Source: an uncultured Bacteriovoracaceae bacterium (GTDB lineage: Bacteria; Bdellovibrionota; UBA2428). Taken from it: 64,000 nucleotides of DNA. The translations under genes were made by a program, and so were the position numbers. The stretch's first letter is position 1; every line of letters begins with the position of its first letter. Below, in pieces: positions 4,991 to 54,199 of this stretch. The DNA lies in assembly GCA_964407615.1 (NCBI GenBank), contig CAYOWH010000002.1, forward strand, positions 3,472 to 67,471, written 5' to 3'. Below the pieces are notes generated by a model. The model was not told the origin of the DNA. It saw nothing but the letters and a program-made list of their open reading frames with translations, and did no database searches.

Positions 4991-4994
4991 TTAA

Positions 4995-5486: not shown

Positions 5487-5488
5487 AA

Positions 5489-8497: not shown

Positions 8498-8502
8498 AAT
8501 AA

Positions 8503-15595: not shown

Positions 15596-15610
15596 AAGCA
15601 ATATTATACA

Positions 15611-18560: not shown

Positions 18561-18578
18561 ATTATTAATTATCGAAAA

Positions 18579-20396: not shown

Positions 20397-20746
20397 TATA
20401 ACTTCTCTTTAATTGATGTTAAAAATTCATTTAAATATTCGGGTTTAACTGTTTTTATAACAGATCCGCCTTCTATATTCAAAACCGGATTTTTAATATT
20501 ATTTACAAGCATTATAAGCCACCACAAATGTATATTTTTATATATATTATAACTTAAAGTTGTTAATGGAATAGGATATTCAACCAAATAGTAATCATAT
20601 ACACTATCATCAATATCATTAGGTAATATAGGTTTATTTAATATATTATAAAATATATAAGAATCCGAATTTTCGTTAATAACTTCATACATATTAAACA
20701 AATTTTCGTACATTTCAGCACTATGTCTTATATTAATTTTATTCAT
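20396..20746 (-). CDS. hypothetical protein (116 aa)
   Basis: ATG ORF translationally coupled to flanking genes. Confidence 0.45.
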   Translation of the reverse strand: MNKINIRHSAEMYENLFNMYEVINENSDSYIFYNILNKPILPNDIDDSVYDYYLVEYPIPLTTLSYNIYKNIHLWWLIMLVNNIKNPVLNIEGGSVIKTVKPEYLNEFLTSIKEKL

Positions 20747-20749
20747 ATA

Positions 20750-22105: not shown

Positions 22106-22130
22106 TTAAATATTTATAATCAAAATATTA

Positions 22131-26968: not shown

Positions 26969-27587
26969 CTCTTACTATAGCCTTTTCACCATCATAATTT
27001 AAAGTATCAGCAGTCACTGATACCGGAACACATTTTTCGAAATTGTGTATCTTTCTAATTTGTCTGTTTTTAGTTATTTGAACAACTTGTATATCTCTTT
27101 TTATAGAAGGTTTACCTCCACCTTCCAATAATCCTCTATAAGATGCAGCAATAATCCAAGGACGTATTAAACCGTCTAGAAAATCTAAATTTGTCTCTAA
27201 AAATCCTATACTTATATTTCTTGTAGCATAAGATTTTCTGTTTTCGGCAAATAATCCGCCTAAAATACCATAAGAATTTTCATTTGAAGTCCCCACTTCA
27301 AAACTTTCATCAGGTAATTTAACAGTTTGTGCAAAAAATAATCCACCAGTATCATTTTCTACTGGTTGAACTTTTGAATTTGTTAAATTATTCAATATAC
27401 TATTAGATATGTAGAATTTATTTTTATCTACTTGAGTATATTTTTGAATTTCAGAAAATAATTGATCTTTGTTTTCGTCAAAAGAAATTCTCACTAACCA
27501 TTGCGTAGTAAGAGGGATATCGTAATCCCTCTTACTTAATAAATCTAAAAAATGATTTACTATTCCGCCTCTAACTTCGATTGCCAT
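26925..27587 (-). CDS. tail-tube-family protein (220 aa)
   Basis: C-terminal VSVTADTLNYDGEKAIVRDVVWHFNKYTYQIF resembles the T4 gp19 C-terminus. Adjacent to the other tube-fold gene. Confidence 0.4.
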   Translation of the reverse strand: MAIEVRGGIVNHFLDLLSKRDYDIPLTTQWLVRISFDENKDQLFSEIQKYTQVDKNKFYISNSILNNLTNSKVQPVENDTGGLFFAQTVKLPDESFEVGTSNENSYGILGGLFAENRKSYATRNISIGFLETNLDFLDGLIRPWIIAASYRGLLEGGGKPSIKRDIQVVQITKNRQIRKIHNFEKCVPVSVTADTLNYDGEKAIVRDVVWHFNKYTYQIF

Positions 27588-27590
27588 TCA

Positions 27591-28205
27591 TTATCTATTT
27601 ATTGGATTAGTAAATGCGTATACTTCCCCGCCTAATCTTCTTCTTTCGAAAAAGTGATATGCAATGGAAGCTGTGAAACTAACTACACTTCCACTACCTT
27701 CAGCAGTTTGATATGCTAAATCGCCAACATTGCGTATACTACATCCAACTAATTTATATTGATAAATAGGATCTAATTTTTTATTCAATTGATTTAATAG
27801 TATATAAGAATTTCTATTAGCAATTGTACCCAACCCATCAGATCCAGTCCCAGCAAGACCAAATTGATTTCCGAATGTTCTAGTAGATTCATTCATTAAT
27901 TTTTCTCTCAAGAATGAAGATTCTGAACAATAAAATTCAATTTCATATCCATCTGCACCGGGGAAAGTTACAGCAGCAGGCATATTAAAAGTTTGCCCAG
28001 CATATTTTACTTCGGTATTTCCAATTACTCTTCCGGGCAATTTTCCAGTTTTAGCGAATACTAAATCATCTCTACCCAAAACTAATCTATCATCACCAAC
28101 TCCATCAATGTTGATATTTATAATTCTGAATAAAAAATCCCTACTAAAATCTTGCTCAACGGCTTTTATTAAGAAGTTATTAATTGTATTAGTGCTTGAA
28201 TCCAT
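27591..28205 (-). CDS. tail tube protein, T4 gp19-like (204 aa)
   Basis: Immediately downstream of the sheath gene. N-terminal FSRDFLFRININIDG resembles T4 gp19 FARPNLFQVEISY. AGGAG Shine-Dalgarno about 15 nt upstream. Confidence 0.5.
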   Translation of the reverse strand: MDSSTNTINNFLIKAVEQDFSRDFLFRIININIDGVGDDRLVLGRDDLVFAKTGKLPGRVIGNTEVKYAGQTFNMPAAVTFPGADGYEIEFYCSESSFLREKLMNESTRTFGNQFGLAGTGSDGLGTIANRNSYILLNQLNKKLDPIYQYKLVGCSIRNVGDLAYQTAEGSGSVVSFTASIAYHFFERRRLGGEVYAFTNPINR

Positions 28206-31211: not shown

Positions 31212-31790
31212 TTAATATGATATTAAATTTGTTTCTATTCTACTAAAAACAAACTGAAAAGATGTGTCTAATTCTCTAGGTTCTCTATGCGAATAATTTA
31301 ATTCCGCCAAAGATATTGGAAATGCATTTTTGTAAACCCATTGTATAACAGGTTTTTCAAATTCGTCTAATGCTACTAATTTAAAATCAGAAGAATATCT
31401 TCCCAATCCAACATCATTCATCAACATATCACCCGAAAATATAGTAGATTTTTCATCCCTTAATATTTGAAGCCATTTATGTATGACCCAATAATTTTTA
31501 AATTCATTATCTATAGTAAAATTTATTGTAATTGGTTCATATGATGGTTTTGCATGAGAGGAAACATATATATTTGCTCCACCATATTTGACTTCAATTT
31601 GAGGTATCAATTCAGCAGGAACAACTGTTCCGTAAACTGAAAATTGCAAAGAATCGAACATTATTTTTTTTGAACTTTTATCATCTATTGTATTAATTCT
31701 TTTTAATTCAGTAGGTATACCCAATGTCAGAATAAATTTATCCGACCTAGATTTGTTTAGTAATGATTGTTTGAAAAAATTATCGCTCAT
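31212..31790 (-). CDS. tail-tube-family protein (192 aa) between terminase and sheath
   Basis: C-terminal AFPISLAELNYSHREPRELDTSFQFVFSRIE resembles T4 gp19 LWPTNVGELQLDWDSNNEIQTFEVTLALDYWE. Start overlaps the terminase stop region. Confidence 0.4.
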   Translation of the reverse strand: MSDNFFKQSLLNKSRSDKFILTLGIPTELKRINTIDDKSSKKIMFDSLQFSVYGTVVPAELIPQIEVKYGGANIYVSSHAKPSYEPITINFTIDNEFKNYWVIHKWLQILRDEKSTIFSGDMLMNDVGLGRYSSDFKLVALDEFEKPVIQWVYKNAFPISLAELNYSHREPRELDTSFQFVFSRIETNLISY

Positions 31791-33465
31791 ATGGTTCTAA
31801 CATTTTCCAACCAGAAATAATTAAATCATCCATATCTGGATCTTTATCCTTTTCCATACCAAAATATGTAGGTAAAGTATTCATATTATCATAGTCAGAC
31901 TTTACTAAGTATTTAACTCCTAAATCTAATTCATTAATAACCATTGGTTTTTTATATTCATCTCTTTCCAAAACTTCATAATATCTTTCTACAATTTCAT
32001 CATATAAAATCATTAATGCCCAAGCTAATGACATTACTCTGTCATCGTGACAATTAGCTTTCGCCCCCCAAATTCCGTTTTTATATCTTGTAAAATCTTT
32101 TAATTCTAAAACAGTATTCATATCATTAATGTGAACACTTTTAGTTTTTAACATCCAATGTCTTAAGTTTTCAATACATCTCCACTTTGTATTATGATGT
32201 GATATCATGCCTAATTGTTCGTTTTTTCTTGAAGCTTGTTTCAAACCCCAAGATACAATATTTTCATAATCATAATTTTTTCTTAAATTATCAACAACTT
32301 GTGCTCCACAGTTATTCCTTTCAATTAAAGCATACGGCCTCCCCCATTGATCTAATATATCAAACAATTTGGAAGAAAATTCAGAAGGGGATATTTTATT
32401 ATTATTATAACATGCTACTTGAATAATATTTCTTGGTTCCGTAATATCTAAAATTTGTATACAAGAAGAATCTCTCCCCAAACCTTCGGCAATATCAACC
32501 CCAGCTACATAGCTCCTTTCATCATTCGGAGTATTCCATATTTTATAACAACCATCTTCTAATAGATATATAGGATCTCTAGCAGAAGATTTCATATTTT
32601 CAAATGCATCCGCATCTAATGCAGATTCTCCAACTTCGTCGAATTCCACTTCATATTCTCTTCTCCATACGTTAGCGTCTCCAATTGAAGCCATTGTATC
32701 TTTTTTAAATTTTTCGTCACGCCCCGGAACTTCATCCCATTTTATTTTCAAAGATTTCCAATTATTGGTGCCTCTCACAGAGGCATCATACAATTTATAA
32801 AATAATCCAGAAGTATCTCTTGGGGTTGATGCCATTATTATTTTTGATTTTTTAGAAGAAGAAATAATTGGATACACAGAAGCCCAAAATTCGTCTAATA
32901 AATTAGCTTCAATCCAATCAGCCTCATCAATAAACAATAAATTGGCCGAAGATCCACGACCAGCAGTTCCAGTTGTAGTTGTAATGCCTATTCTAGATCC
33001 GTTTGCCAATTCCATAGATTCCATTCCATAATAAGTTACAGGCGATTTTAACCAATTTGGAAGATTCTCATAAGCCATTCTAATTCTTTTAAATATTTCT
33101 TTTGCGGTAGATTCTTTATTTGCGACCAACATAATTCGTTGATCTTGTTGGAAGATAGCAGTCCATAAACAAAAAATTGTAGAAATTGTCGATTTGCCCG
33201 TTTGCCTGCTGAACAATAATAGACTAAATCTATTATCTCTAATCATTCTTAATGCTCTTTTTTGATATAAATGTAATTTAATTTTCTGTTTACCTTCATC
33301 TAAATTAATTATATAAAAATGATTTTCCGCAAAATGTAAAACGTTTTCAGAGCATAGTTGCATTTCCGCCAACATGTCTGGAGTATATTCGAACTCAGCC
33401 CCTACTGTAGGAAGATTTGGATTATTTAAATAAATTGGTTTTTTATTTTTTTTATCTACAGCCAT
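31780..33465 (-). CDS. terminase large subunit, T4 gp17-like. Start set at ATG 33465 (MAVDKKNKK...).
   Basis: HLYQKRALRM...SRQTGKST (Walker A), LFIDEADWIE and the nuclease half match T4 gp17. The 44-codon extension up to 33597 is antisense to the plus-strand gene at 33536, so I treat it as spurious. Confidence 0.85.
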   Translation of the reverse strand: MAVDKKNKKPIYLNNPNLPTVGAEFEYTPDMLAEMQLCSENVLHFAENHFYIINLDEGKQKIKLHLYQKRALRMIRDNRFSLLLFSRQTGKSTISTIFCLWTAIFQQDQRIMLVANKESTAKEIFKRIRMAYENLPNWLKSPVTYYGMESMELANGSRIGITTTTGTAGRGSSANLLFIDEADWIEANLLDEFWASVYPIISSSKKSKIIMASTPRDTSGLFYKLYDASVRGTNNWKSLKIKWDEVPGRDEKFKKDTMASIGDANVWRREYEVEFDEVGESALDADAFENMKSSARDPIYLLEDGCYKIWNTPNDERSYVAGVDIAEGLGRDSSCIQILDITEPRNIIQVACYNNNKISPSEFSSKLFDILDQWGRPYALIERNNCGAQVVDNLRKNYDYENIVSWGLKQASRKNEQLGMISHHNTKWRCIENLRHWMLKTKSVHINDMNTVLELKDFTRYKNGIWGAKANCHDDRVMSLAWALMILYDEIVERYYEVLERDEYKKPMVINELDLGVKYLVKSDYDNMNTLPTYFGMEKDKDPDMDDLIISGWKMLEPYER

Positions 33466-33535
33466 AGCGATATTTACAAAAAAATTGTGAAGTTTTAATA
33501 AAAATCTAATTAAAATGACTAAATAGTTTGTAACT

Positions 33536-34117
33536 ATGAGCAATAAATCTCTATTTGACAAACTATTTAATGAAGTAATGGAAGCTGGTCCAGACATGGA
33601 AGCGCAAACCGATGAAGATGCTTTGGAATTACCTCAAGGCGATGAAGGTGGCGATGAAATGGGCAGCGATGAAAGTTTCGGCGATGAAGGTGGCGATATT
33701 ACGGTATCAATGAGTCGTTCCCAAGCAGAAGCATTAAGAGATCTTTTAGATGCCGCTTTAGGTGGTGGCGGAGAAGATGAAGATGAAGATTTTGGAGAAG
33801 AAGAAACTTTAGATATGGGCGGAGAAGGTGAAGAAGGATTGGGCGGTGGAGAATTGGGAGAATCACCAGCAGTTGAAACTCTAGAAGAACTTCCTACTCA
33901 AAAATATGTTGACGCTTTAACTGGTAAGAAAAATAAGGTAGAAGGCGCATTAGCTGCTAAAGATAATGCCGGTAGCGAAGGTTCTGGCGAAGTAACACAA
34001 GCTCATCCTTTAAAGAAAGCTTCATTGGCTTATAATGATGGGAAAGGCAAGAAACATCAAGTTGGTGGCAAATACACTCAACAGAATAAAACCACTTCAT
34101 CTTATCTCAATCAATAA
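33536..34117 (+). CDS. highly acidic Gly/Glu/Asp-rich low-complexity protein (193 aa)
   Basis: ATG ORF divergent from terminase. Has DEGGDEMGSDESFGDEGGD and GGGGEDEDEDFGEEETLDMGGEGEEGLGGGELGE tracts. Locally much higher GC than surroundings. Followed by a strong terminator. Confidence 0.6.
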   Translation: MSNKSLFDKLFNEVMEAGPDMEAQTDEDALELPQGDEGGDEMGSDESFGDEGGDITVSMSRSQAEALRDLLDAALGGGGEDEDEDFGEEETLDMGGEGEEGLGGGELGESPAVETLEELPTQKYVDALTGKKNKVEGALAAKDNAGSEGSGEVTQAHPLKKASLAYNDGKGKKHQVGGKYTQQNKTTSSYLNQ

Positions 34118-35287: not shown

Positions 35288-38200
35288 TTATAATACTTTT
35301 TGGGGACCAGTATTTGTTACTCTATATACAGTGCCATTTTCTCTATGAATGAGAGAATCTTCCCCAGCAATTTGAACAGATGATGTAACGTTTTTCATAT
35401 TAAATCTCTTAAAAAATGGCGTATTAACAGGAAAATCTGGTGGAAATACATCAGCCTTATAACCACCAAAATATACATAATTATCAGAATCTAAGTAACC
35501 AATCATAGTTTGATCTTTGACAGCATTATCGGAAACAAATATATCTATAGCATTATCAACCGTAGAAGATTTATCATAATTATAACATTGCGTAGGCGAT
35601 GTGATTGCAATATCTATAATAGAATTTACTAAACATTGACCTATGTCAACTCCATTATATCCCCAAGAAAATAATCTGCCATCCTTTAATAATGCAAAAA
35701 TTGTAGGGTTATCTTTTCCAGAAACTATTACCTTTTTAACATTTGACAATTCTTCTATTCTTTCAAAATTATTATATGTAACAGTAGAAGTAGAACCTTT
35801 TCCCATTTGACCAAAATTATCGTCACCACAAACCCATAAATAACCTTCTCGATCTATATAATAATTATTTAAATGTCCGCTATACAATCCATCAGATAAT
35901 AAATCTGCATCGTTGATTTCTGATGTTACTCCTCCAAAACTTTTTTTACATATTTCAAATTTAAAATGTGAATGATTGTGCGATGCTTCTGCCACAGGCG
36001 CAGCACCTCTTCCCAGTTGTCCTCTGGTATTAGTTCCAGCTGACCGAATCTTTCCATCTTTAGTAATTATAGTGAGCAAACTAGAAGTGCCATCAGAAGC
36101 AGTTATGGCATAATCTTTAATCTGCCCAGAAAATTGTTTTATTTTAGTTGGATTTATAGATACCATAGCAGCAGCAGTTGCTCCACTTTTACCATAACCT
36201 ATTCCAAATGCGCCATGTCTACTATACCCCCAAACCCATAAACTATCATCGATATCTAATGCGGCAAAAAATGGATAGTTTGTCCCAATTCTTTTAAAAG
36301 ATTTAAATTTAACTTCTTTTTCATTTTCTAAAATAATAGTTTTTATAAATCCAGCAGTAGATTTATTTGTCATGTTTCCTATTCCAAAAGCACCTCTAGA
36401 ATTATTATTATAAAATACGATATCTTTAGAAGAAGATCCTGTATTAATATAACCGACTCTATCGCCAAGAGTATCTGTAAAATATAAATAATTAGAATCT
36501 TGATCTAAATATAACGCCATTGGCTTCCAATTTATAACACTTTTTGTAGTATCTAAATTTCCTTTCACTGATCCTGAAAATAATGATACATTATTTGGAA
36601 AATCAGTATTTGATTTGACAATTACATGACTCGTTTGCGAAAGTATATATAAATTTTTTCCTATAGCCTCAATTGAGGCGGGGTTTGGGACACCAGCTAA
36701 CGATCCGACTCCATATTTTAAAGATTTTCTTGCAGGAGCACCAATAATAGTATCCACCTTTTTTGTTCCAGACAACTCTACAGTTCTAATAGAATTACTA
36801 TTATACTCAGCTATATACAACATATCACCAAGTAATTTTATACTCTTTCGAAGTTTTCCAAATTTAGCATTCAATCCGTTAGTAGCATTTTGATAGCCTT
36901 CAGACGATCCAGCAATAGTTGTAACTGGATGATTTGGTGTCGCAAAATCAACTTGTCTTATAGCAATGCTATCCGAAAAATACAGTTTTTTAGTGACTTT
37001 ATCGTATGCCATTCCTGTAGGATATCCTAAGTTAGCCTTTAATGCACTTAAGCTATCAGCAGTATTTATAACTCCCGTACCAGCAACTGTTGTCACAGGA
37101 TAATTGCCACTTAAAACTATTTTCCTAATACGTCCCGTATCTGAAACAAATAATGCAGAAACTCCATCATATTCAATTTGCACAGGTGCCAAAAATTTAG
37201 AGCCAGTTCCAATAGGACCATCCAAAAAACCGCTTGCCCCCGTACCAGCTATAATACTTAAACTAGGAGTAGTTGCCGTTAAATTAATCATCTTAATATT
37301 AAAATTACCAGTATCTACTATATATAATCTATTATCAATAAATCTTAATCCCCTAGGATCTTTGAAGCTAGCTTTAGACAAAATACCCGTAGCATTACCA
37401 GCAGCACCAGTTCCAGCAAATTTAAATGCGGATACTATTCCAGTAGTACTGTCGATAACAATTTTTTTAATATTAAAATTTGCAGTATCTGATACATAAA
37501 ATGTATTATCATTTTCCCCTCTGCAAATATCCGTAGGAGCATTAAAAGCAGCAGCAAGATAAACATCCCCAGCAACATATGTTGAAACGGCAGACGTGGA
37601 AGTGTTTAATGTTCTGATACATTTATTTTCAGTATCCGCAATATATAATGTAGATCCATCATTACTAATTGCTAATCCAGTCGGAGTATTAAATCTTGCA
37701 TTTGTTCCTATTGCATCTGTAACACCAGCAGCTCTGGAACTTCCAGCTATAGTATTTACATACCATTTATCTGTAGGTCTTTCTAATTCAGTCGTAGTTA
37801 ATTTTCTAATTCTGTGATTATCTGAAACATACATTATGTTTCTATTTGTGGGATCTATTACTATTTTTCTGGGGGAATGAAATCTTGCGGTATACCTTTC
37901 GCCATTAGCATCACCACTTAATGCTACAGTTCCCCTTTGAATACCAGATACACCAGCTATTATAACAGTATTTTTATCAGTATCGTTTTTAATTCTTCTG
38001 ATATTATGATTTAAATTATCACACACATAAATGTCCCCAGTACTTAAATCTTGTGCTATACCATTTGGAGTATTAAATCTGGAAGCACTTCCAGTTCCCG
38101 GAATTCCACCTTTTTGTCCATCTGTAGCATTGTTATTAGCTGTCGGGCTTCCTGCAATGTCTATAACATTACCCAAATAATCTATAAATTTTATTTGATG

Positions 38201-39553
38201 ATCACATGAAACTATATATTGTTCTTTTACACTAAGACCATTCACATTCGATGATGGAATACCACTCAACTCAACTTTATTAGATATAATATCTGATGGT
38301 AAAGGAATGGCAGATAATGGATTAATATATCTAAACTCAATTTCAGGAATTATTTTTCTAATTCCCCCATTTTTCGCCTCTGCTATCACTATATAATCCC
38401 TATCATTAGAAATAGTTATACCTCTAGGATCTATATATGCAGTAGACAACTCACCAACATTAGTTCCACAAACCCAAATATCACCCCCAGCTTCGATGTC
38501 TTCGTCTGGATATACTAAAGCTACGCCACTACTAACATTCCAAGATAATGCGCCTATAGAAGCTGTTTTATTTTCATCTAAATAATCGCCTCCATAAGGG
38601 GCATATTTTTTAGAATCTTTATATCCATCATATAATTTCCAAAAAGGAACTCTAACATTTAATGTAGGTATTACAGTAGTAATAACAGAACCTCCGAATT
38701 TTGATGGATGCAAATTACCCCAAGCAATAACTCTATTATCATTAGTCAAAGCTGCATATCCACTAGATGCCTGTGATAAATTAGCCAAATATTTAATATA
38801 GCCCTGTTCAACAATAATAGTCTTTTCGGGAGAATTAACTACCCAAGATTTTAAATTATTATTAAAACTAATATTTGCCATATCCGGATATGGCAAATTT
38901 TCAGGATCTACATTATTAAAATTCTCCGGTGAAATTCTTTTTCGCACCCATTTTTCATCCAAATAAATTATAGTACTTCCACTAATAGCGTCTACATTTG
39001 ATATAGATAAACCATTTGAATCAATATCCAATCCACCATTTGGTTTAATTATATTACCTAATTTATCAGTAGTAACTGCTTTATCTACTAACTTTACAGT
39101 AGATACAGAATTTGAAGAAAGTTTATCAATAGTAACTGAATTCGAAGCTAATTTTAAATCAGTGACAGAAAAATCATTCAATTTATCAGTAGTAACTGCT
39201 TTATCTACTAACTTTACAGTAGATACAGAATTTGAAGAAAGTTTATCAATAGTAACTGAATTCGAAGCTAATTTTAAATCAGTGACAGAAAAATCATTCA
39301 ATTTATCAGTAGTAACTGCTTTACTGTTAATTGAAGCGGTAGTGACTGTATTATTTGCTAAATTAATATTATAACTTTTACTAGGATCAAAATAAGCGGA
39401 TACTTTATTATTTAAGTTAATATTATTAACTATAAAATTTTCAATATTACTTAATCTTGTAGAATATGTAGATAACCCTTGATACAATGGGAAATAATCT
39501 CCTCCCGATAATTTTGCCACTTCATCTAATTGATTTATTCTTTTATTCGCCAT
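35288..39553 (-). CDS. giant tail-fibre/adhesin protein (about 1421 aa): tail-fibre repeats, then NHL-repeat beta-propeller, then RCC1-like beta-propeller
   Basis: N-terminal repeats AVTTDKLNDFSVTDLKLASNSVTIDKLSSNSVSTVKL. NHL-like YVSDNHRIRKL / YVCDNLNHNIRRI / YVSDTANFNIKKI / YIVDTGNFNIKMI. RCC1-like WVWGYSRHGAFGIG / GTNTRGQLGRG / CGDDNFGQMGKG / WGYNGVDIGQ. Track start 39574 is TTG, so I use ATG 39553. Confidence 0.7.
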   Translation of the reverse strand: MANKRINQLDEVAKLSGGDYFPLYQGLSTYSTRLSNIENFIVNNINLNNKVSAYFDPSKSYNINLANNTVTTASINSKAVTTDKLNDFSVTDLKLASNSVTIDKLSSNSVSTVKLVDKAVTTDKLNDFSVTDLKLASNSVTIDKLSSNSVSTVKLVDKAVTTDKLGNIIKPNGGLDIDSNGLSISNVDAISGSTIIYLDEKWVRKRISPENFNNVDPENLPYPDMANISFNNNLKSWVVNSPEKTIIVEQGYIKYLANLSQASSGYAALTNDNRVIAWGNLHPSKFGGSVITTVIPTLNVRVPFWKLYDGYKDSKKYAPYGGDYLDENKTASIGALSWNVSSGVALVYPDEDIEAGGDIWVCGTNVGELSTAYIDPRGITISNDRDYIVIAEAKNGGIRKIIPEIEFRYINPLSAIPLPSDIISNKVELSGIPSSNVNGLSVKEQYIVSCDHQIKFIDYLGNVIDIAGSPTANNNATDGQKGGIPGTGSASRFNTPNGIAQDLSTGDIYVCDNLNHNIRRIKNDTDKNTVIIAGVSGIQRGTVALSGDANGERYTARFHSPRKIVIDPTNRNIMYVSDNHRIRKLTTTELERPTDKWYVNTIAGSSRAAGVTDAIGTNARFNTPTGLAISNDGSTLYIADTENKCIRTLNTSTSAVSTYVAGDVYLAAAFNAPTDICRGENDNTFYVSDTANFNIKKIVIDSTTGIVSAFKFAGTGAAGNATGILSKASFKDPRGLRFIDNRLYIVDTGNFNIKMINLTATTPSLSIIAGTGASGFLDGPIGTGSKFLAPVQIEYDGVSALFVSDTGRIRKIVLSGNYPVTTVAGTGVINTADSLSALKANLGYPTGMAYDKVTKKLYFSDSIAIRQVDFATPNHPVTTIAGSSEGYQNATNGLNAKFGKLRKSIKLLGDMLYIAEYNSNSIRTVELSGTKKVDTIIGAPARKSLKYGVGSLAGVPNPASIEAIGKNLYILSQTSHVIVKSNTDFPNNVSLFSGSVKGNLDTTKSVINWKPMALYLDQDSNYLYFTDTLGDRVGYINTGSSSKDIVFYNNNSRGAFGIGNMTNKSTAGFIKTIILENEKEVKFKSFKRIGTNYPFFAALDIDDSLWVWGYSRHGAFGIGYGKSGATAAAMVSINPTKIKQFSGQIKDYAITASDGTSSLLTIITKDGKIRSAGTNTRGQLGRGAAPVAEASHNHSHFKFEICKKSFGGVTSEINDADLLSDGLYSGHLNNYYIDREGYLWVCGDDNFGQMGKGSTSTVTYNNFERIEELSNVKKVIVSGKDNPTIFALLKDGRLFSWGYNGVDIGQCLVNSIIDIAITSPTQCYNYDKSSTVDNAIDIFVSDNAVKDQTMIGYLDSDNYVYFGGYKADVFPPDFPVNTPFFKRFNMKNVTSSVQIAGEDSLIHRENGTVYRVTNTGPQKVL
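39061..39323. repeat. perfect 120-bp tandem duplication (2 copies plus about 23-bp partial third) inside the 1421-aa fibre gene
   Basis: 39061-39180 is identical to 39181-39300. Each unit holds two diverged about 60-bp subunits. Encodes duplicated KLNDFSVTDLKLASNSVTIDKLSSNSVSTVKLVDKAVTTD. Confidence 0.9.
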
Positions 39554-39561
39554 AACCTTAT

Positions 39562-42500
39562 TTATATCTTCCAATATACATTATTATCAAATACTATATA
39601 ATCATCATTTTCAATATTAACATATTCTGATGTAACATTTAACTTAGCCACGCTACTCCTCTGATCTGTCGAAACATCCATTATGACGACATAATACTCT
39701 CCAGTATCAAATAATTGCAAATCATTTTTATAATATATGGAATTAGTTTCCGAATCAATACTTCCGGTGTCAGTTCTCATCCATTGATACGTTAATGTAG
39801 ACGATGAAGTAGTTTTTATAGAAAACTGAATATTATCACCCACTTGTTTTTCAATAGGATATCCTAAATATTGCTTCCCATCAATATATAATGGATTTTT
39901 TAATCGTATTATTACATTATAATTTATTCCACCAGATAATGGAAGTTTATCCAGTCTAACCTTAGAATAATCTATAATTTCAATTATAGTTGTATCCAAA
40001 GGTAATATATCAGAAATTATTTCAGACCCCACAATTATACCTACAGTGCATCCTATATCCACAACATAACTGGTAGTGGATGTTTCAATTGAACTGTCAA
40101 TATAACTTACATTAACTAAAGAAGGATTTTTAACTTTAGTAGGACTTAAAGTAAAGTTATAGTTACTCCTATCTTTATATGTTTCATTTTGAAATGCTAA
40201 TAATCGTACATTTGATGGATCTAAATCTATGGGCGAAGTTATATTATAATCATTCGAATCCAATGATAGAGATTTTCTAAGTGGTGTAAAATTTGAAATG
40301 TAATACAACGCCTTTCCTTTAATAATTCTAAGATTAGATATATAACCATTATAATAACTCTCAGTCGGAGAGCATCCTATAAATAAATTATAATTAGTGT
40401 TATTAAAATTTTTATCAAAAAGACCACTATTCAACAATATTCCATCTACAAACAAATATACAATTCCAGATTTTCTAGTTACTGCTATATGATACCAAGT
40501 GTTCTTAATAAAATTAAATGAAGCACTAATATTGGGTTCTCCAACTATTACTTCATTAAATGAAAATCCAGTGTTTGCAATGTTTAAAGACCAAGTTCCA
40601 GAAGCTCCATCTCTTGTTTTCCTATTTGTCACAATTCTAGTCCCCCCACCATCTGGAAGATTATTCATAATATAAGCTTCAATAGTAAAGTCTTCGGTTC
40701 CAAATGCAAAAGCACTAAGATTTGTAGGTCTTTGAAATATTTCTATATATTGTGATTGAGATGAATCAAAATATCCTGCTGGTAAATAAAAATTTGATGT
40801 ATACAATACAGAACTTGGAACTATTTGCTTACTAATAGTAGGTGTTTCATATTCCAATTTACAAACTTCTCCGCCTCTATTTTCATAAAATTCAACTTGT
40901 ATATCATAAAATACGTTTGCGGTAAGGTTAATTGTGCCTGTAGTTGTTATAGGAGCAGTTATTATCCATTTATCTATAATTAGAACACCATTTACCCACA
41001 CCCTAACCCCATCGTCATGAGTAATATGAAATGTATAAAGTTCTGTTGTTGTTGGCTTTATATAACCTTTCCACCTCGCACTGAACGAATCTCTACCTCC
41101 ATTTACAAATGTACCAGTTCCCCAATTTGAATCACTATTAATATTTTCAATTACGGTAGATGATGGTGCTCCTGTTAATTCTTTATTATCCCAATATGCC
41201 GCAAATAAACCTGTTCCAGTAGTATTAGAAACCATACGCGGGCCACTAGGAGTACCACTTAATGTCAAATTATATTTATTGTCACTATTATCAAGAAACG
41301 TATCATCCTGTAGTGTTAACAATGAAGTCGAATAACCTGTTCCTTTTTCAGAAATTAATTTTGAATATAAAGAAGGTTTTGTAAATGTTGGAGAACCCTC
41401 ATAAAGAAGCTTGTCTGATATTCTAAAATTTGATATATATCCTTTAAAATTGGATTCCGTAATTGAACTAAATGGTGTAAAAGTTTCAATAGAAGGTGTT
41501 CCGACTATCGATAATGATTTTGCTGTTAAACTATTGTCTATGAATCTATTACTTTGCAACGTTAACAAAGAAACGTTTGACGGAATAGGGTTTACTACAT
41601 TTCCTGTTGCGTTTCCATTTGTTGATGTGGTAAGTGGAATAGTGCTTGGTTTAAATTCTCCTGTGTAAAGAGCTTGTCCTTTTGTTACTCGGAGGTCGGA
41701 AATATATCCACTTAGAGATACGTTTGCACTAGTATTATAATTACTACCAATCATAGGTCCGTATGTAATTCCGGGATTAATTGTCCCCCCAGCACTACTA
41801 TTAGTGTCAACTATAGTTCCATTTAAAAATGAATATAAGTTATTACCTGAGCGCACTAAAGCCACATGACACCAAGTGTTTAACGGAGGATTTGGTGATT
41901 TAACACTTTTATTTGTTGTTCCAATGTATATATCAGAACTTGTAGTGGTATCTGTAACATAAAGAACTACACTACTGGTTTGAGCAAGTTTACCATCAGT
42001 TTGACCACAATATATAATTGAGGTTCCTGCTTTCATTTTATACACCCATGCTTCAATAGTAAAATCTCCATCTCCAAAATGTAACGAATCTATATTTAAA
42101 TCTAATGTTAATTTCGAACTGCCATCAAAATACCCACTCCAACCATTTGTAGGAGTAGGCCCACCAAAAATATTTCCAATCGCTAAAGTATAAGGCGCAT
42201 CTGAAGTCGATGCTGTTCCAGATTTATTAAACGTTCCAGCAGATTGTCCATTTATATAATAATTTAAATTGCCTGATGCTAAAGAATCATCCCACATTAT
42301 AGCAACATGAGACCATGTATTGGCAGTTAACGAAACACTAGAACTGCTGTTAGATATTGGAGCTGAAGCTGTAATTTTACTTCCTATAATAAATTTCGAC
42401 CCATTAGATATCCAAAACCCTAATGTTCCATTGTTTTGAAGAATTATAGACATTCCCGGTTTACTAGAAGAATTATAATTTGTGTCTAATAATGTTTGAT

Positions 42501-44670
42501 CTGTTCCTATATCAGTAGGATATATCCAAAATTCAATAGTATATTTAGAATTTTTAGTATGTAAGAACTTCCAATCAGAATCTTTTCCAGCACTTAAATA
42601 TCCAGTACCATCAAAATACGAACTCCAACCTAAATTTGTTATAATTCTAGAAACTTTAGATGTATCTGGAACAGAGACTTCCGCATCAACATTAATTGTA
42701 TTTGCGATAGCAAGTTTATCAATTCTAAAAGAAGTAAGGTTTATAATTTCAGATATAATAGAATCATTAGGAATTCCGATAGATTTTATTTTAGCACAAA
42801 CTAATAATGAAGATGTGTTAAAAGTGGACAATATATTACTATTTGTCAATGTACTCACTAATAAAGAAGATATAATTGTATCTATTAATATCTCAACATC
42901 AATTTGAGTAGCAGTAGCATCATAAAATATTTCAAATTCAGTATCACTAATAATTTTAGTTATAAATGAACCATCTGGTATATTTGGACCACTAACTCTC
43001 ATTCCAACACTTATACCATCAGTACTTTGTACCACAATTACCTTACTATCTTTTGTGGTTTTCGCTAACATTCTCTTCTTGGAGGCAAATCTAACAGTTA
43101 CATTAAATCCATCATCAGAAGCAACATTACTAACAATTACAGTGTTGAAATCATCAATTCTAACCACCACTGTATTTTTAGGAAATAAACTTGTAACAAC
43201 ATCCATCCCTAAAAATATGCCAACTGTAGATGGGACTTTTATCGTATTACTATTTTTTAATACAGTACAATTATCAACATTTGAAGCAGGTATTATATCC
43301 GCTACAATATCATAAACCGCTCCACCCTCTACTGTGTTGTTATTAATCCTTATTGTTGTAGGACTAATTAATTCCGTTATTTTAGAATCTATGGGTATTT
43401 TAGGACCCGAAATTCTCATTCCGGGGACTAAATATGGAGTTTCCGTAATAGTTAAAACATCCGTATATTTAGTAACATCAACTCTATTTATTGTAACTGA
43501 TGTCGATAAATTAGCTATACTTTTGCCGGTAGACAATGCAAGTGTGTTTATCCCAAATGTACTTTCATCAGTAATTGAATTTATTAAACTTGACGATAAT
43601 ATGTAAGGAAGTTGTGTCGTATATGAATATATTGGACCCGTATCTGTCAATATTTGATTGATTTCAGGGTTATATATCCTCATTCCAGTACATAATTTTT
43701 TAGCAGTTTGCCCTAAATTAACCCATTTTTTATCTATAGTTACAGTACTATTATTTTGTATAGTATCAATATATGCAGTTGTTATAAAATTATCATCAAA
43801 TTTTATAGTACTATCCAATACAACTTTAGCAGTTTTACTTATAGAACTTACATTTGTGATATTAGTTATTACGCAATCGTAATCTCCTACAAAACTCCTG
43901 TTTACAATAGGTTCAAAATATACACATGTTAATACATTTACATCTGTCAATGTGGTTAATGTATCCGGTATTTCTACTTTATTTTTTCTCCAATAAAATG
44001 TAGCTGGATATGCTCCACTAATTTCACATTTTAATGTTAAAGTTCCATTAGGAATTATTTTAACATTTTCTGGATCTTTAGTTACTTTTATAGGATAAAT
44101 TAAATCTAAATTTACTTTATTTGATGTTATAGAAGTTTTTGCATTTGAAACTATGCAATAATATTGTCCTAATTTTAATTCAGTTACATCAAAAACAGTT
44201 AAACTTTTTGTAAAAGTTAACAAAGATTTATTTTCATAAAACCACTCTACTGTTGGACTCCCTCCACCTTCATAATCTATAAAAAATACAGCATTTTCAT
44301 TTCTTTTTACAAATAATGGACTTGGTTGTAATGTTATAGCCAAAGGAGCAAATACTTGTAAAGTAACGATATCACTCTTAACGCTACCTGCTAAATTTGT
44401 TATTAAGCAAAAATAAGATCCACTGTCATTCTGAGATGCATTTTGTAATTTTAAATTTGATGAAGTTGCTCCAACAATTGGAGAATTATCTTTAAACCAC
44501 TGATAAGTTATTGGCCTTGTACCTCTAGCAAAAACTTCGAAAGTGTAATTATCTGAATATTCTATCACCCCACCTACAGGTTGTTTGATTATTTTAACAT
44601 TTTTTACGGAGCCATATCTTATGTTAGATATCCCACTAAAATGCTTTAACCCTGTAAAATATCCTCCCAT
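39562..44670 (-). CDS. giant multidomain adhesin-like protein (1702 aa): 3 N-terminal Ig(I-set)-like domains, 3 LamG/ConA-like lectin domains, a PA14 domain, C-terminal Ig-like domain
   Basis: Ig-like: [13 protein letters not shown]...[26 protein letters not shown]...[24 protein letters not shown]...[12 protein letters not shown], C-terminal [11 protein letters not shown]...[12 protein letters not shown]. LamG-like: YTIEFWIYP...[19 protein letters not shown]...[28 protein letters not shown]...[19 protein letters not shown]. PA14: [14 protein letters not shown]...[24 protein letters not shown]. Confidence 0.65.
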   Translation of the reverse strand: [1702 protein letters not shown]

Positions 44671-44674
44671 ATTA

Positions 44675-46174
44675 TTATGCTACATTAATAACTATCCAAG
44701 AACTACCATCATAAACAAATTTAGAATAATTTGTCACATTTTGTAATAATACACCATAGTAATCATTTACTTGTACTACGTGCCCGCCACCCGGTAATCT
44801 ATAAGATACTTCATAAATTAATCCAATATTATTTGAATTAATAAGAGGTAAATTTAAATTTACAATACAATTATCAGCACTAACTGCCCAAAATTTCGGA
44901 GAATCGACATTTAAACTTAACGTCGTGTTTATGTTATAATAAACAGCTGTTAAATTTACGTATGTCGATTTAGGTCTTTGCCATTGTGATGAATTAGCAG
45001 TTAATGAAGTATAAGATTGATTCCAATTACCAGATGTATTTGTTAATGCTGTATAAGACTGGTTCCAATTCGAAGAAGTGGCAGTTAATGAAGTATACGA
45101 TTGATTCCAATTACCAGATGTAGTTGTTAATGCTGTATACGATTGATTCCAATTACCAGAAGTGGTCGTCAGTGCAGTATACGATTGATTCCAATTACCA
45201 GATGTATTTGTTAATGCTGTATAAGACTGGTTCCAATTACCAGAAGTGGTCGTCAGTGCAGTATACGATTGATTCCAATTTGAAGAAGTGGCAATTAATA
45301 CTGCATAAGATTGATTCCAGTTAGCGGAAGTATTTGTTAATATAGTATAAGATTGACTCCAATTAGAAGAATTGGCAGTTAATACTGTGTATGTTTGATC
45401 CCATTTAGCGGAATTTGAAGTTAATGTGGTATATGATTGATTCCAATTACCAGAAATTGACTGTAGATTATTTAAAATTGGGGAAACTATAGATCCCTGT
45501 ACTACAAGATCATCAACCGTAGTTATTCCACTAACAGATAAATTTTTACTTAATATAAAATTTTCGGATGCACTTAAATCTAATCCAAATTTTATATTAG
45601 TTTTATTAATTTCTAAACAATCATCTTTTAAATTAGAAGAAAATTTAGCAATAATATTATTCGTTGACGAATTCTGTTTTACAGATAATGTCGGACTAAT
45701 AGAACTATTATTATTTGAAATGTTTATATAATTATTTGATGAAATATAATTAGATACAGTTAAAATCCCAGTAACATTTAAAGCATCACTTATTTTAGTT
45801 TGAGGGGTATTTAAAAATACCCCATTTGCATATGATATTGTTAATGTGTTGTTCCCATTTCCCAAAACTACAGAATCTGATAAAATTGTTTCAGTGGAAG
45901 TTCCGGATAATTGAGTTATATACAATATATCTTCCACTGTCATCTCTCCAACAACTTTAGCATTCCCACCAACTTCAAATCCATCTTGTATTTTTGCGGA
46001 TAATAATTCTATCCCTGAACTTGCGCTTAATACCCCATTTACTACAAAATCTCCCTGAAAAGGTTCTTCTCTAGAAGCAATTGGATCCGTAGCACTATCC
46101 GGAAATCCTATTGTAGGAATCGAATGGTGATTTTTTCTATGTAATTTATCATGAAATCTTGCATTTCCGGCCAT
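44675..46174 (-). CDS. fibre protein (499 aa) with about 12 tandem 14-aa repeats (WNQSYTALTxTSGN)
   Basis: ATG start. The repeat block is encoded by 42-bp DNA repeats. Confidence 0.7.
   Translation of the reverse strand: MAGNARFHDKLHRKNHHSIPTIGFPDSATDPIASREEPFQGDFVVNGVLSASSGIELLSAKIQDGFEVGGNAKVVGEMTVEDILYITQLSGTSTETILSDSVVLGNGNNTLTISYANGVFLNTPQTKISDALNVTGILTVSNYISSNNYINISNNNSSISPTLSVKQNSSTNNIIAKFSSNLKDDCLEINKTNIKFGLDLSASENFILSKNLSVSGITTVDDLVVQGSIVSPILNNLQSISGNWNQSYTTLTSNSAKWDQTYTVLTANSSNWSQSYTILTNTSANWNQSYAVLIATSSNWNQSYTALTTTSGNWNQSYTALTNTSGNWNQSYTALTTTSGNWNQSYTALTTTSGNWNQSYTSLTATSSNWNQSYTALTNTSGNWNQSYTSLTANSSQWQRPKSTYVNLTAVYYNINTTLSLNVDSPKFWAVSADNCIVNLNLPLINSNNIGLIYEVSYRLPGGGHVVQVNDYYGVLLQNVTNYSKFVYDGSSWIVINVA
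44975..45465. repeat. about 12 imperfect 42-bp tandem repeats (coding)
   Basis: ttccaattaccaga recurs at 45021, 45063, 45105, 45147, 45189, 45231, 45273, 45315... Confidence 0.85.
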
Positions 46175-46179
46175 TCTAT

Positions 46180-46187
46180 TATTTATA
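46180..46187 (-). promoter_or_regulatory. T4-late-promoter-like TATAAATA box 5 nt upstream of the fibre ATG
   Basis: Minus strand reads TATAAATAatagaATG. Confidence 0.3.
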
Positions 46188-46330: not shown

Positions 46331-46338
46331 TATAAATA
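46331..46338 (+). promoter_or_regulatory. T4-late-promoter-like TATAAATA box 5 nt upstream of the GTG of the lectin-like gene
   Basis: Plus strand reads TATAAATAttcttGTG. Mirror image of the box at 46180-46187. Confidence 0.3.
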
Positions 46339-46343
46339 TTCTT

Positions 46344-47123
46344 GTGTATAATAATATATCACATTTTTATGTTAAAGAGCTTTTTGATTCTAGTCATGAC
46401 GTAACATGGTCATTTCAGTACAGCTTATCGGGCAACAATAAAACTGACGGAGGATTTACTACATTTTTAAAATTATCTTCGCAAAATGCAGAATTAAATT
46501 CCGGTGGTGGTGGCGCATCTTTGGGTGTCGGATCAAAAGATGTGATTAATAAAATAGATAATATTTTATTTTGTGTGGCAATTGATAGTACGGGTTTATT
46601 TGGAACTAAGGCAACATTTCCTACTGGTTTAAATGCTCCTATAAAAAATAGCATGATTATAAGATTATTCAACGATTTAATTTATTTAACGGCTTTCCCA
46701 TTATCTTCGGTTGGACTTGATGGATTAAATTTGAATAACATATATAACACTATAAGAATAAATTACACAAATATAGGGGAAACTATTAATATAGCAAAAT
46801 TAAACAATATTACTAATGAATACGATACGTTTTTTTCATACACCACAAATTTTTCTAAAAAACTAAACGACCCAGTTCAAATAGGCTTTTCACACACATC
46901 GCCCATATTGCCTATAAATTTAAAATCAGTATTAACTTTAAAAGATATACATGCCCAAGGTCGATATGTATTTCCAAAATATGATAATTTATTTGAAAAA
47001 ATTTATGATAAAAATGGGAATTTTTTATATTATCTAAACCCTGATGGAGAAATATTATATAGTGATTCGGAATATAAAGAAAAATTAAAAGAACAAGTTG
47101 ATTTAATTGAAACTTCGGAATAA
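46344..47123 (+). CDS. L-type (legume-like) lectin / ConA-like fold protein (259 aa), GTG start
   Basis: NKTDGGFTTFLKL...NSGGGGASLGVG...FCVAIDSTGLFG parallels L-type lectin signatures ADGxAFFxAP...GGxLGL...VAVEFDT. No in-frame ATG for about 100 codons, and in-frame TAA at 46320. Confidence 0.5.
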   Translation: MYNNISHFYVKELFDSSHDVTWSFQYSLSGNNKTDGGFTTFLKLSSQNAELNSGGGGASLGVGSKDVINKIDNILFCVAIDSTGLFGTKATFPTGLNAPIKNSMIIRLFNDLIYLTAFPLSSVGLDGLNLNNIYNTIRINYTNIGETINIAKLNNITNEYDTFFSYTTNFSKKLNDPVQIGFSHTSPILPINLKSVLTLKDIHAQGRYVFPKYDNLFEKIYDKNGNFLYYLNPDGEILYSDSEYKEKLKEQVDLIETSE

Positions 47124-54184: not shown

Positions 54185-54199
54185 AAATCTATTTATATA

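Follow-up and report, generated by a model that had tools for sequence, protein, structure and literature searches.

Gene, operon and domain order

The gene under study lies at 39562..44670 (-) of the window, i.e. the whole stretch of 64,000 nucleotides that was analysed, and forms one uninterrupted frame with an ATG start that encodes a predicted modular virion-surface adhesin of 1702 aa. A full-length identical protein is on record in NCBI, on a contig of 118,691 bp; an exact-sequence look-up for the context of P0001 gave no record. The gene is the middle one of a tight three-gene fibre operon with neck, terminase and tail genes alongside. Its upstream partner (44675..46174, (-)) encodes a fibrous protein of 499 aa with ~11-13 tandem 14-aa repeats (SGNWNQSYTALTTT), without a family or PDB match, and its stop codon lies 4 nt from the ATG of the adhesin gene. 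The downstream partner (35288..39553, (-)), whose ATG follows the adhesin stop by 8 nt, encodes a ~1421-aa fibre with a fibre-type N-terminus (tail-fibre PHROG matches), repeats, an NHL propeller and an RCC1 propeller. The original prediction of a virion-module gene is supported by these fibre-like flanking genes together with the adjoining genes for head closure, terminase (TerL), tube and sheath. The T4 late-promoter-like motif TATAAATA (46180..46187, (-)) precedes the start of the operon's first gene by 6 nt; it is not enriched across the window and is suggestive of a late promoter by placement only. The source of the locus is an uncultured low-GC (~29%) T4-like myovirus. Megablast of 20 kb revealed no close cultured relative, the DNA polymerase is ~30-32% identical to its counterparts in cyanophages and phage C48C1, and a search for tRNAs as host clues found none.

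In a Pfam scan of the entire protein, Laminin_G_3 (4.2e-43, three stretches), Ig_3 (2.2e-27, four stretches, 95.8 bits against a cut-off of 30), PA14 (3.5e-22, aa 1153-1285) and I-set (2.3e-21, three stretches, 76.1 bits against 23.7) all scored well past their curated cut-offs. Three N-terminal Ig-like domains, three LamG units, a PA14 domain and a C-terminal Ig-like domain, as read from the letters alone in the original prediction, were thus recovered by profile (E 1e-21 to 1e-43), its proposed search with Ig, LamG and PA14 profiles having matched above cut-off in each case. Its DNA positions were correct to a few tens of bases (PA14 at 40816-41214 instead of 40800-41215), and several distinct carbohydrate-binding-type modules are indeed present. 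The assignment to I-set passes the cut-off, although Ig_3 gives the better score. That first description left out six ~69-aa beta-barrel repeats, which make up ~1/4 of the protein, a piece of a fourth LamG unit that stands by itself at aa 1077-1145, and the conserved peptides at both termini. The complete order is a 25-aa N-terminal peptide, three Ig-like domains, five barrels, a ~855-aa cassette (LamG, LamG, LamG relic, PA14, LamG), barrel 6, a fourth Ig-like domain and a 21-aa tail. Predicted models consist of separate globular beta-domains, and the protein has the appearance of many beta-domains strung together, each folding on its own.

The scaffold modules

The N-terminal peptide (aa 1-25, MGGYFTGLKHFSGISNIR.G; 44596..44670, (-)) has no family match and is largely unchanged in P0217, the single orthologue described below. 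The C-terminal tail (aa 1682-1702, ...DYIVFDNNVYWKI, with the stop codon 39562..39627, (-)) is nearly identical in P0217; searched as a degenerate DNA pattern, its motif had no exact match in viral, metagenome and genome collections. No anchoring domain was identified in the protein, and the two terminal peptides are the candidate docking elements.

The three tandem Ig-like domains (Ig_3/I-set; aa 26-285; 43816..44595, (-)), namely Ig1 (aa 26-106), Ig2 (~112-190) and Ig3 (~195-285), each exceed the Pfam threshold when scanned singly. The top database matches of the array are bacterial and metagenomic Ig proteins, and a first indexed protein search returned an excess of bacterial multi-Ig proteins. 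The C-terminal Ig-like domain (aa ~1600-1681; 39628..39873, (-)) is sub-threshold in Pfam on its own (Ig_3 0.011, V-set 0.001); it corresponds to the fourth Ig_3 stretch of the whole-protein scan, aligns to Ig1 at 8.4e-7 by self-BLAST and is kept in P0217.

Five tandem ~69-aa repeats, the first one degenerate, occupy aa 306-671 (42658..43755, (-)), and a sixth is found far downstream at aa 1527-1589 (39904..40092, (-)), where it matches repeats 3-5 at 2e-5 to 1e-4 (self-BLAST) and aligns to P0217 675-726. The repeats share the consensus 'T.GS..V.V.ST.GL.VGM.V.G.GIP.GT.I.SI...T...LS..AT' (alignment A1), and each is a small beta-barrel in the predicted model. The repeat belongs to no Pfam or PHROG family and a sequence search with the barrel region gave no solved-structure match, while a search of 1.84 billion representatives found the repeat in 72 proteins at E<=1e-3. 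Barrel arrays recur in cyanophage proteins whose annotation reads Fiber, Tail protein or Virion structural protein, and the unannotated repeat could receive a family definition of its own. Surface proteins of bacterial appearance that contain PATR, RTX or flagellin-N domains carry the repeat too, as might be expected if the adhesin were no virion part at all and were instead released at lysis or shown on the infected cell, for example masking receptors, aggregating cells or binding matrix. We regard such a role as highly improbable: the N-terminus, judged by eye, is unlike a signal peptide, the gene forms a tight unit with two fibre-like genes within the late structural region, and the homologous phage modules are all found on proteins annotated as virion proteins.

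The predicted lectin cassette and its absence from a syntenic orthologue

The cassette spans aa 672-1526 (40093..42657, (-)). LamG unit 1 (aa 681-842; 42145..42630, (-); Pfam ~705-848) has neither the terminal 'GYISNxR' strand nor the extension that follows in the other units. Unit 2 with its C-terminal extension covers aa 843-1075 (41446..42144, (-); Pfam ~860-1000) and has no solved-structure match by sequence search. Unit 3 with its extension (aa 1298-1515; 40126..40779, (-); Pfam ~1318-1450, 8.8e-16) matches unit 2 at 2.7e-9 by self-BLAST. Between unit 2 and the PA14 domain lies an orphan 'GYISNFR...LLTLQ' segment (aa 1077-1145; 41236..41442, (-)); self-BLAST pairs residues 986-1047 with 1075-1129 (4.8e-5) and 1071-1140 with 1436-1511, and by its motif positions the segment is the relic of a truncated, fourth LamG unit. 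The units combine above-threshold Laminin_G_3 matches with a LamG/ConA-like beta-sandwich fold. In a 37-sequence alignment (A4) only fold-core and extension residues are invariant (T21, E23, W83, H85, A87, L186, D195), with no recognisable sugar site among them. Among the structural neighbours are the sugar binders CBM40 and tailspike TSP2, along with accessory domains of enzymes and protein binders; besides sugars, the ligands of LamG-type domains can be proteins or others.

The PA14 domain (aa 1153-1285; 40816..41214, (-)) is of the RsgI type. As a segment it scores 6.3e-24 in Pfam (84.9 bits against a cut-off of 24) and also matches GLEYA (3e-6, 27.8 bits against 26.2). Its closest solved relatives are those of clostridial RsgI3/RsgI4 (PDB 6qe7/6qdi domain E, 5e-25), with ~50% identity over the domain and shared residues at both Ca2+ sites: D1180, D1194 and S1195 at the first, followed by D1219-D1220 (the DcisD pair) and Y1262-E1263 (mapping against PMC6852018). 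Of the elements of a DcisD-N calcium and sugar site (Asp-Asp on beta5, Asn/Gln in CBL2, a stabilising Tyr), the sequence has D1219-D1220 and Y1262, but E1263 at the Asn/Gln position, the cis-peptide and Ca2+ occupancy being matters beyond sequence. Binding of pectin or xylan by the RsgI3/RsgI4 modules of cellulolytic clostridia depends on Ca2+ (PMC6852018). In contrast to those modules, which form a dyad within an anti-sigma factor, the phage PA14 is a single module of a phage structural protein. Because its CBL2 carries Glu where characterised PA14 lectins have Asn/Gln, and its loop differs from that of RsgI, the PA14 ligand is not predictable. The domain is nevertheless near enough to solved Ca2+-dependent polysaccharide sensors for the design of site-directed tests.

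The sole relative found to carry an orthologue is contig L006 (ENA ERZ19569752, 167.5 kb), which encodes the 850-aa protein P0217 at the same position in the operon. Both proteins share the terminal peptides, three Ig-like domains, six barrels and the C-terminal Ig-like domain, whereas P0217 lacks the entire LamG-LamG-PA14-LamG cassette. BLASTP is collinear, aligning residues 1-680 to P0217 1-680 (51% identity) and 1485-1702 to P0217 634-850 (42%), and by repeat register barrels 5 and 6 are contiguous in P0217. The alignments show the cassette to be an in-frame insertion relative to P0217 located exactly at the barrel 5/barrel 6 boundary. We infer the direction of the event from L006, the one contig available for this purpose, and a deletion in the L006 lineage would give the identical pattern. 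Misassembly or recent duplication was rejected, since the sole repeats at the cassette borders are 23-29 nt long and coincide with conserved LamG motifs.

In the L006 phage, Ig, barrel and LamG modules are also borne by a separate, divergent gene of 1343 aa, whose N-terminal domain has a counterpart in the window encoded by its own gene of 259 aa; a solved-structure search with the 259-aa protein gave only chance-level GAPDH matches (E ~1). The lectin load is placed differently, on the scaffold gene in the window and, for the LamG modules of L006, on the 1343-aa protein. Searches of IMG/VR for more orthologues with the whole protein and a scaffold alignment returned just Ig-level or PA14-level matches, and searching metagenome or viral collections with the aligned downstream fibre gene gave nothing. 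A second indexed protein search was dominated by multi-LamG proteins and missed P0217. No literature was found on the L006 source sample. One speculative scenario, to which we give little credence at present, is that the Ig/barrel rod with its terminal peptides is a scaffold dedicated to display, that it tolerates insertions at one fixed site between barrels 5 and 6, that the glycan-binding cassettes which phages of this lineage place there are interchangeable, and that modules are traded between two neighbouring divergent genes. If true, this would be a natural cassette system that retargets virion adhesion while leaving the core tail machinery untouched.

Relation to known adhesins and proposed role

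Multi-LamG virion proteins are found in T4-like cyanophages and uncultured Caudoviricetes (Syn1_217, the S-IOM18 gp7-like giant, phrog_3545, 24074, 13163, P0099-P0216). What they have in common with the adhesin is the LamG unit with its 'GYISNLR.VKG.A.YT..F.P...PL...LLT.Q..F.D.S' extension, at 27-40% identity. They are likewise large and encoded near fibre genes; on contig L005, for instance, a multi-LamG giant adjoins a Peptidase_S74 fibre, a Phage_tail_APC protein and an RCC1 protein. Unlike the adhesin they are mostly LamG arrays, covering at most ~52% of the query; none of those retrieved aligns to its barrel region at aa 326-600, and only P0125 has PA14 alongside LamG. The cyanophage members are annotated virion structural or gp7-like, the virion-protein annotation having a proteomic basis (PMC3037559).

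Annotations of this kind raise the question of a primary receptor-binding fibre or a gp7-like baseplate-wedge component, i.e. an essential tail part whose lectin modules are specific receptor-binding sites. PHROG 'baseplate wedge subunit' families are matched (phrog_13163 2.6e-39, phrog_1469 1e-25), the S-IOM18 giant with its LamG units is annotated 'similar to gp7', barrel arrays occur in cyanophage 'Fiber' proteins, and the gene is part of a fibre operon. The PHROG alignments, however, comprise ~150 LamG residues only (profile 573-721 of 976; 562-707 of 2607), so that homology to gp7-like proteins does not extend beyond LamG, and the gene has no place beside gp6/gp8-type genes. A gp6-like wedge gene of the window (11859-13673) is 26 kb away and is followed by genes for 1118-aa and 1002-aa proteins, which are better gp7-type candidates. 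Pfam scans of the whole protein and its segments found no trimerisation element, coiled coil, beta-helix or Peptidase_S74 chaperone, and the hallmarks of classical trimeric tail fibres or tailspikes (N-terminal attachment domain, shaft, chaperone) had no Pfam or PHROG match. Furthermore, the L006 orthologue keeps the scaffold without the lectin block, and the lectins are therefore dispensable for the conserved role. An essential receptor-binding or wedge function is, on balance, distinctly unlikely.

A second comparison concerns Hoc-like capsid decoration, in which the protein would sit at the hexamer centre and project its modules from the head, serving adherence to mucus or environmental glycans (BAM-type model) rather than host adsorption. 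The adhesin shares tandem Ig_3/I-set-type domains with T4 Hoc, Bas63 Hex-Dec (9NCF) and Sf14 gp20 (9C2D). The latter two, both hexamer-centre proteins, are the top solved matches of the Ig array at aa 27-285 (9ncf_S, 1e-34; 9c2d_S, 1e-30), with titin and Robo behind; Hoc-like head decoration families are among the PHROG matches (4e-17 to 3e-7), and the beads-on-a-string chain of globular domains is nearer to Hoc than to classical trimeric fibres. Ig repeat number is known to vary among Hoc-like relatives (PMC11821841, PMC12609058). Yet the solved matches stay within the Ig repeats (chain residues ~210-304). The capsid-binding domain, be it the ~200-aa N-terminal CapBD of Hex-Dec/gp20 or the C-terminal domain 4 of T4 Hoc, has no Pfam, PHROG or PDB match in a protein with only 25 aa before Ig1 and 21 aa after Ig4. 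The gene also lies inside a fibre operon instead of standing alone, the protein has added beta-barrel, LamG and PA14 modules, and in the account of Fraser et al. 2006 given in PMC9853417 Ig domains are promiscuous, occurring on heads, tails and fibres. We consider capsid decoration unlikely. It counts against a tail-side location that the solved structures nearest to the Ig array come from capsid proteins and not from tail proteins. The analogy with Hoc drawn in the original prediction is weak because the Hoc-like capsid-binding domain is absent, and the adhesin is ~4-5 times longer than Hoc-like proteins. T4 Hoc has 376 aa, so the factor of ten first proposed for the difference in size becomes ~4.5.

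Giant bacterial repeat adhesins, such as RTX adhesins, combine a PA14 sugar-binding domain with an Ig-like/beta-sandwich extender. The phage protein resembles them as a beads-on-a-string extender with ligand-binding modules, and its barrel repeat is common to RTX/PATR proteins; in contrast to them, it has no secretion signal, RTX or anchor elements and stands in a viral context. The description of its parts as animal-type domains does not hold. The Ig-like domains have Hoc-like phage relatives, PA14 is closest to clostridial RsgI3 and the LamG units fall within a large phage family; as judged from these sequence relationships, the Ig, barrel, LamG and PA14 modules are all of phage/bacterial type. 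An animal or eukaryotic origin was rejected, with nearest neighbours being phage or bacterial and GC3 uniform, that of the lectin block being the same as in the rest of the gene. The Pfam names I-set, Laminin_G and PA14 imply no animal origin, and a recurring misreading is corrected here. The idea of an unusual binding strategy finds no support either, since phages with surface Ig-like domains, cyanophages with LamG units in their virion proteins and T4-like cyanophages with PA14 have all been documented (PMC9853417, PMC3037559). The cassette as an insertion is the one unusual feature of what is otherwise an ordinary kind of phage sugar-binding adhesin.

Given the virion-module context, several carbohydrate-binding-type modules and the PA14 Ca2+ residues, the best reading is therefore a multivalent protein that would target glycans, either as a fibre or as a decoration protein. 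We favour, with modest confidence, a virion-surface accessory adhesin that would bind polysaccharide reversibly, and its attachment is probably to fibre, neck, tail or baseplate rather than to capsid hexamers. The scaffold of termini, Ig-like domains and barrels may anchor the protein to the particle and double as a spacer. The PA14 domain, in a Ca2+-dependent manner, and the LamG units would then provide a weak multivalent grip on polysaccharide of the host envelope or the environment, by which the phage could stay at the cell surface until specific contact is established through the downstream beta-propeller fibre.

Ig-like and carbohydrate-binding surface proteins of phages are believed to control the initial, reversible encounter with a host or with glycan-rich surroundings, and very few have been characterised. 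The adhesin and P0217 form a natural pair, one scaffold with and without an 855-aa cassette, which makes the role of the lectin block in adsorption directly testable.

Domain content and genomic context

The ORF at 39562-44670 (-) is unbroken and encodes 1702 aa from its ATG; the protein is already present in NCBI, without a name. Searched as a whole against Pfam, it matched Laminin_G_3 (4.2e-43, three stretches), Ig_3 (2.2e-27, four stretches), PA14 (3.5e-22, aa 1153-1285) and I-set (2.3e-21, three stretches), which confirms the predicted Ig, LamG and PA14 content far above chance. Domain borders were set by a Pfam scan of overlapping segments and comprise Ig1 (aa 26-106), Ig2 (aa ~112-190), Ig3 (aa ~195-285), LamG1 (aa ~705-848), LamG2 (aa ~860-1000), PA14 (aa 1153-1285, also matched by GLEYA at 3e-6) and LamG3 (aa ~1318-1450). 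The C-terminal Ig-like domain was sub-threshold when scanned alone (Ig_3 0.011) and aligned to Ig1 by BLAST at 8e-7. The domain coordinates of the original prediction were correct, although Ig_3 is a better fit than the predicted I-set. About one quarter of the protein had been missed, and the size had been overstated: T4 Hoc has 376 aa, so the protein is ~4.5 times its size, not ten times.

The window originates from an uncultured T4-like myovirus of ~29% GC. No megablast match for 20 kb of its DNA was found among 50,697 phage records, and its DNA polymerase shares only ~30-32% identity with the cyanophage and phage C48C1 enzymes. According to PHROG and Pfam annotation, the gene order runs from a gp6-like wedge gene and a gp25/53-like gene through hub-like genes and tube paralogues, a 991-aa sheath with a further tube-like gene, TerL, head closure (opposite strand), a ~1421-aa fibre-like protein, the 1702-aa protein and a 499-aa protein to primase, helicase, DNA polymerase and an SbcC-like protein. 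Three tube-like paralogues (phrog_45) are located at 26925-28205 and 31212-31790 (-). The sheath (28220-31195 (-)) is unusually long; the main sheath profile match does not extend over its N-terminal ~500 aa, which suggests sheath decoration domains. Clamp-loader and dUTPase genes (14666-16069 (-)) sit inside the baseplate/tail structural block, flanked by the gp25/53-like gene on one side and large structural ORFs of no known family on the other, a mixing of modules atypical of T4-like genomes. Nine large ORFs (451-1118 aa) at 1554-11859 (-) and 16623-25229 (-) are without PHROG match; one (8503-11859) has PKD and Reg_prop Pfam matches, the other eight none. Presumably they encode highly divergent parts of the baseplate or fibres, following the gp6-like gene, together with head or baseplate proteins.

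The 499-aa gene, the 1702-aa gene and the ~1421-aa gene form a tight unit: 4 nt separate the stop of the first from the ATG of the second, and 8 nt the stop of the second from the conserved ATG (M8) of the third. The 499-aa protein (44675-46174 (-)) carries ~11-13 tandem 14-aa units "SGNWNQSYTALTTT" (42 nt x 10.9 copies, 45000-45455) between globular N- and C-terminal parts and has no match in Pfam, PHROG or PDB. As judged from sequence, its layout is that of a fibrous protein, probably a fibritin-, whisker- or fibre-like shaft. The ~1421-aa fibre (35288-39553 (-)) shows tail-fibre PHROG matches at its N-terminus, followed by fibre-type repeats, an NHL propeller and an RCC1 propeller. A 120-nt tandem repeat in its gene (39060-39323, 2.2 copies) matches at 100%, and this perfect identity suggests that the shaft region underwent duplication or slippage very recently.

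A T4 late-promoter-like TATAAATA motif lies 6 nt ahead of the 499-aa gene (46180-46187 (-)) and none ahead of the 1702-aa gene itself; the two are therefore probably co-transcribed, although the evidence is weak because the motif is not enriched across the window (21 observed, ~29 expected). Including this copy, five lie 5-6 nt upstream of ORF starts on the correct strand (the others at 46331-46338 (+), 39559-39566 (-), 22111-22118 (-) and 54190-54197 (-)), and both genes of the divergent pair 46174/46344 have one. So short a spacing is unusual for a -10 element and may point to late transcripts that are leaderless or nearly so.

A barrel scaffold with and without the lectin block

Residues 286-700 had no match in sequence searches of Pfam, PHROG or PDB. 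They contain a ~69-aa internal repeat (pairwise BLAST E 5.6e-7 to 2e-5), modelled as a small beta-barrel, with barrels 1-5 in tandem at aa ~306-671 and barrel 6 at aa 1527-1589. When 1.84 billion representative proteins were scanned exhaustively with HMMER, only 72 reached E<=1e-3. With the exception of one orthologue, the carriers are large repeat proteins, some with PATR, RTX or flagellin-N domains, and they share the consensus "T.GS..V.V.ST.GL.VGM.V.G.GIP.GT.I.SI...T...LS..AT". Several tailspike proteins also belong to the matches of the barrel. A search of predicted viral structures found barrel arrays in cyanophage proteins that bear the labels Fiber (Syn30, S-SM2), Tail protein (S-CAM1) and Virion structural protein (ACG-2014e, S-PM2). 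An indexed protein search with aa 286-680 gave zero matches, missing even the identical entry P0001, and an earlier one missed the 48%-identical orthologue P0217; index negatives are therefore unreliable for repeat-rich queries.

P0217 (850 aa), encoded on the 167.5-kb ENA contig L006, was the closest match in the exhaustive search. Its gene occupies the same position, ahead of a 1432-aa NHL/RCC1 protein and then head closure, TerL, tube and sheath. Identity between window and L006 is ~80-87% for sheath, tube, TerL and head closure, 60-65% for the 499-aa gene and 48% for the fibre. The L006 homologue of the 499-aa gene (8072-9992) is seen as fragmented HSPs only and is uncalled as a gene. The L006 TerL (18715-21420 (+), 901 aa) carries a LAGLIDADG/Hom_end insertion (intein or homing endonuclease); the window TerL (31780-33597 (-), 605 aa) has none, and the flanking segments are 80-87% identical.

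P0217 is collinear with aa 1-680 (51%, two gaps) and aa 1485-1702 (42%) and keeps both terminal peptides. Barrels 5 and 6 are contiguous in P0217 (605-660, 675-726) but apart in the window protein (605-671, 1527-1589), which makes the latter a P0217-type scaffold plus an in-frame block of ~855 aa placed exactly at a domain boundary. The block holds, in order, LamG1, LamG2, a LamG relic, PA14 and LamG3. No long DNA repeats flank it and there is hence no sign of misassembly. With one relative, insertion in the window phage and deletion in L006 look alike.

LamG1 has no terminal "GYISNxR" strand and extension, and an orphan copy of both (aa 1077-1145) directly precedes PA14 and is the remnant of a fourth, truncated LamG unit. 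Truncation and relic together show that the block has undergone rearrangement in the past. The neighbouring divergent operon of L006 encodes a 250-aa tail-fibre-like protein, a 430-aa Cadherin_5/Big_9 protein and proteins of 1343 and 439 aa. The 1343-aa protein (1851-5882 (-)) has many Ig domains, three barrels and one LamG; its N-terminal ~250 aa are 64% identical to a stand-alone 259-aa gene of the window (46344-47123 (+)), for whose domain neither a family nor a solved relative could be detected. It appears that either the 259-aa gene has lost an entire adhesion array or the L006 gene has acquired one; the two phages thus divide their adhesion modules differently over a pair of neighbouring genes, and the locus acts as a variable fibre/adhesin island.

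Candidate binding sites and origin of the domains

The PA14 domain shares ~50% identity with the PA14 modules of RsgI3 and RsgI4, two clostridial anti-sigma factors (6qe7, 6qdi; domain E 5e-25); PA14 has been recorded earlier in T4-like cyanophage genes (PMC3037559). Mapping on the RsgI structures places D1180, D1194 and S1195 at the first Ca2+ site (RsgI D29, D61, T62), D1219 and D1220 at the DcisD pair (D86, D87), Y1262 at the stabilising Tyr and E1263 at the CBL2 ligand (Q130/N131) (PMC6852018). Since RsgI binds neither Ca2+ nor pectin once the DcisD pair is lost, and owes its specificity to the CBL2 loop (PMC6852018), a Ca2+-dependent polysaccharide site is likely here, its ligand not being predictable.

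The model of LamG2 (pLDDT 85.4, pTM 0.86) matched PAPP-A (16.8), pentraxins (15.6-13.9), neurexin and laminin LG domains (13.3-12), sialic-acid-binding CBM40 (12.5-11.3) and phage CBA120 tailspike TSP2 (10.6), in full agreement with the predicted LamG fold. Invariant residues among the aligned LamG units are fold-core and extension positions, so a sugar site on these units is only a plausible candidate. The units belong to a large multi-LamG protein family on phage-like contigs, one member being named "uncultured Caudovirales phage"; carriers in cultured cyanophages are Syn1_217 ("virion structural protein") and the S-IOM18 giant ("similar to gp7"). The "virion structural" labels go back to S-SM1 virion proteomics and orthology (PMC3037559). 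A primary fibre or gp7-like wedge component would fit the PHROG labels of the 1702-aa protein and the fibre operon; yet the PHROG matches are confined to the LamG units, L006 does without the lectin block, which is thus dispensable there, and a search for trimerisation elements found none, which leaves this role decidedly unlikely.

The domains had been taken as animal-type, which our data refute: the nearest relatives of the Ig array, PA14 and LamG are phage or bacterial. In a search of 5.8 billion proteins, the Ig array matched bacterial/metagenomic multi-Ig proteins best (e.g. Verrucomicrobiota, Sulfidibacter, Flavobacterium). GC3 of the lectin block (0.165) is in line with the remaining gene (0.13-0.19) and other window genes (0.125-0.235), and an animal origin of the domains was rejected. 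The best solved matches of the array are hexamer-centre capsid decoration proteins, Bas63 Hex-Dec (9ncf_S, 1e-34) and Sf14 gp20 (9c2d_S, 1e-30), identified as such via PMC12609058 and PMC11821841; titin (5e-24), Robo and others rank below.

A putative glycan-binding adhesin

That capsid proteins are the best matches of both Ig array and barrel would suit a Hoc-like capsid decoration protein. However, Hoc-like proteins have a capsid-binding domain, which is missing here, and the gene stands in a fibre operon; we regard this role as unlikely. A protein outside the virion altogether is very improbable. On balance we favour a virion-surface, glycan-binding accessory adhesin; directly established are the architecture, the operon, the cassette relationship and the conservation of PA14 site residues. 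For such an adhesin, attachment to fibre, neck or baseplate is favoured over the capsid because the Hoc-like capsid-binding domain is absent and operon partners and barrel-array relatives are fibres.

None of the module types is new to phage particles: a review by Fraser et al. 2006 (as cited in PMC9853417) covers phage Ig-like domains, and LamG and PA14 are on record in cyanophages (PMC3037559). New are the specific architecture (among the homologues retrieved, none spans more than ~52% of the query or aligns to the barrel region), the beta-barrel repeat, which had no prior annotation, and the clean scaffold pair with and without cassette. More tentative, and rather doubtful, is the reading that the scaffold is dedicated to display and has one fixed site at which exchangeable glycan-binding cassettes are inserted. 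In the adhesin reading, the conserved scaffold would anchor the protein to the particle and serve as spacer, and the cassette would provide weak, multivalent binding to host-envelope or environmental polysaccharide before specific binding by the propeller fibre.
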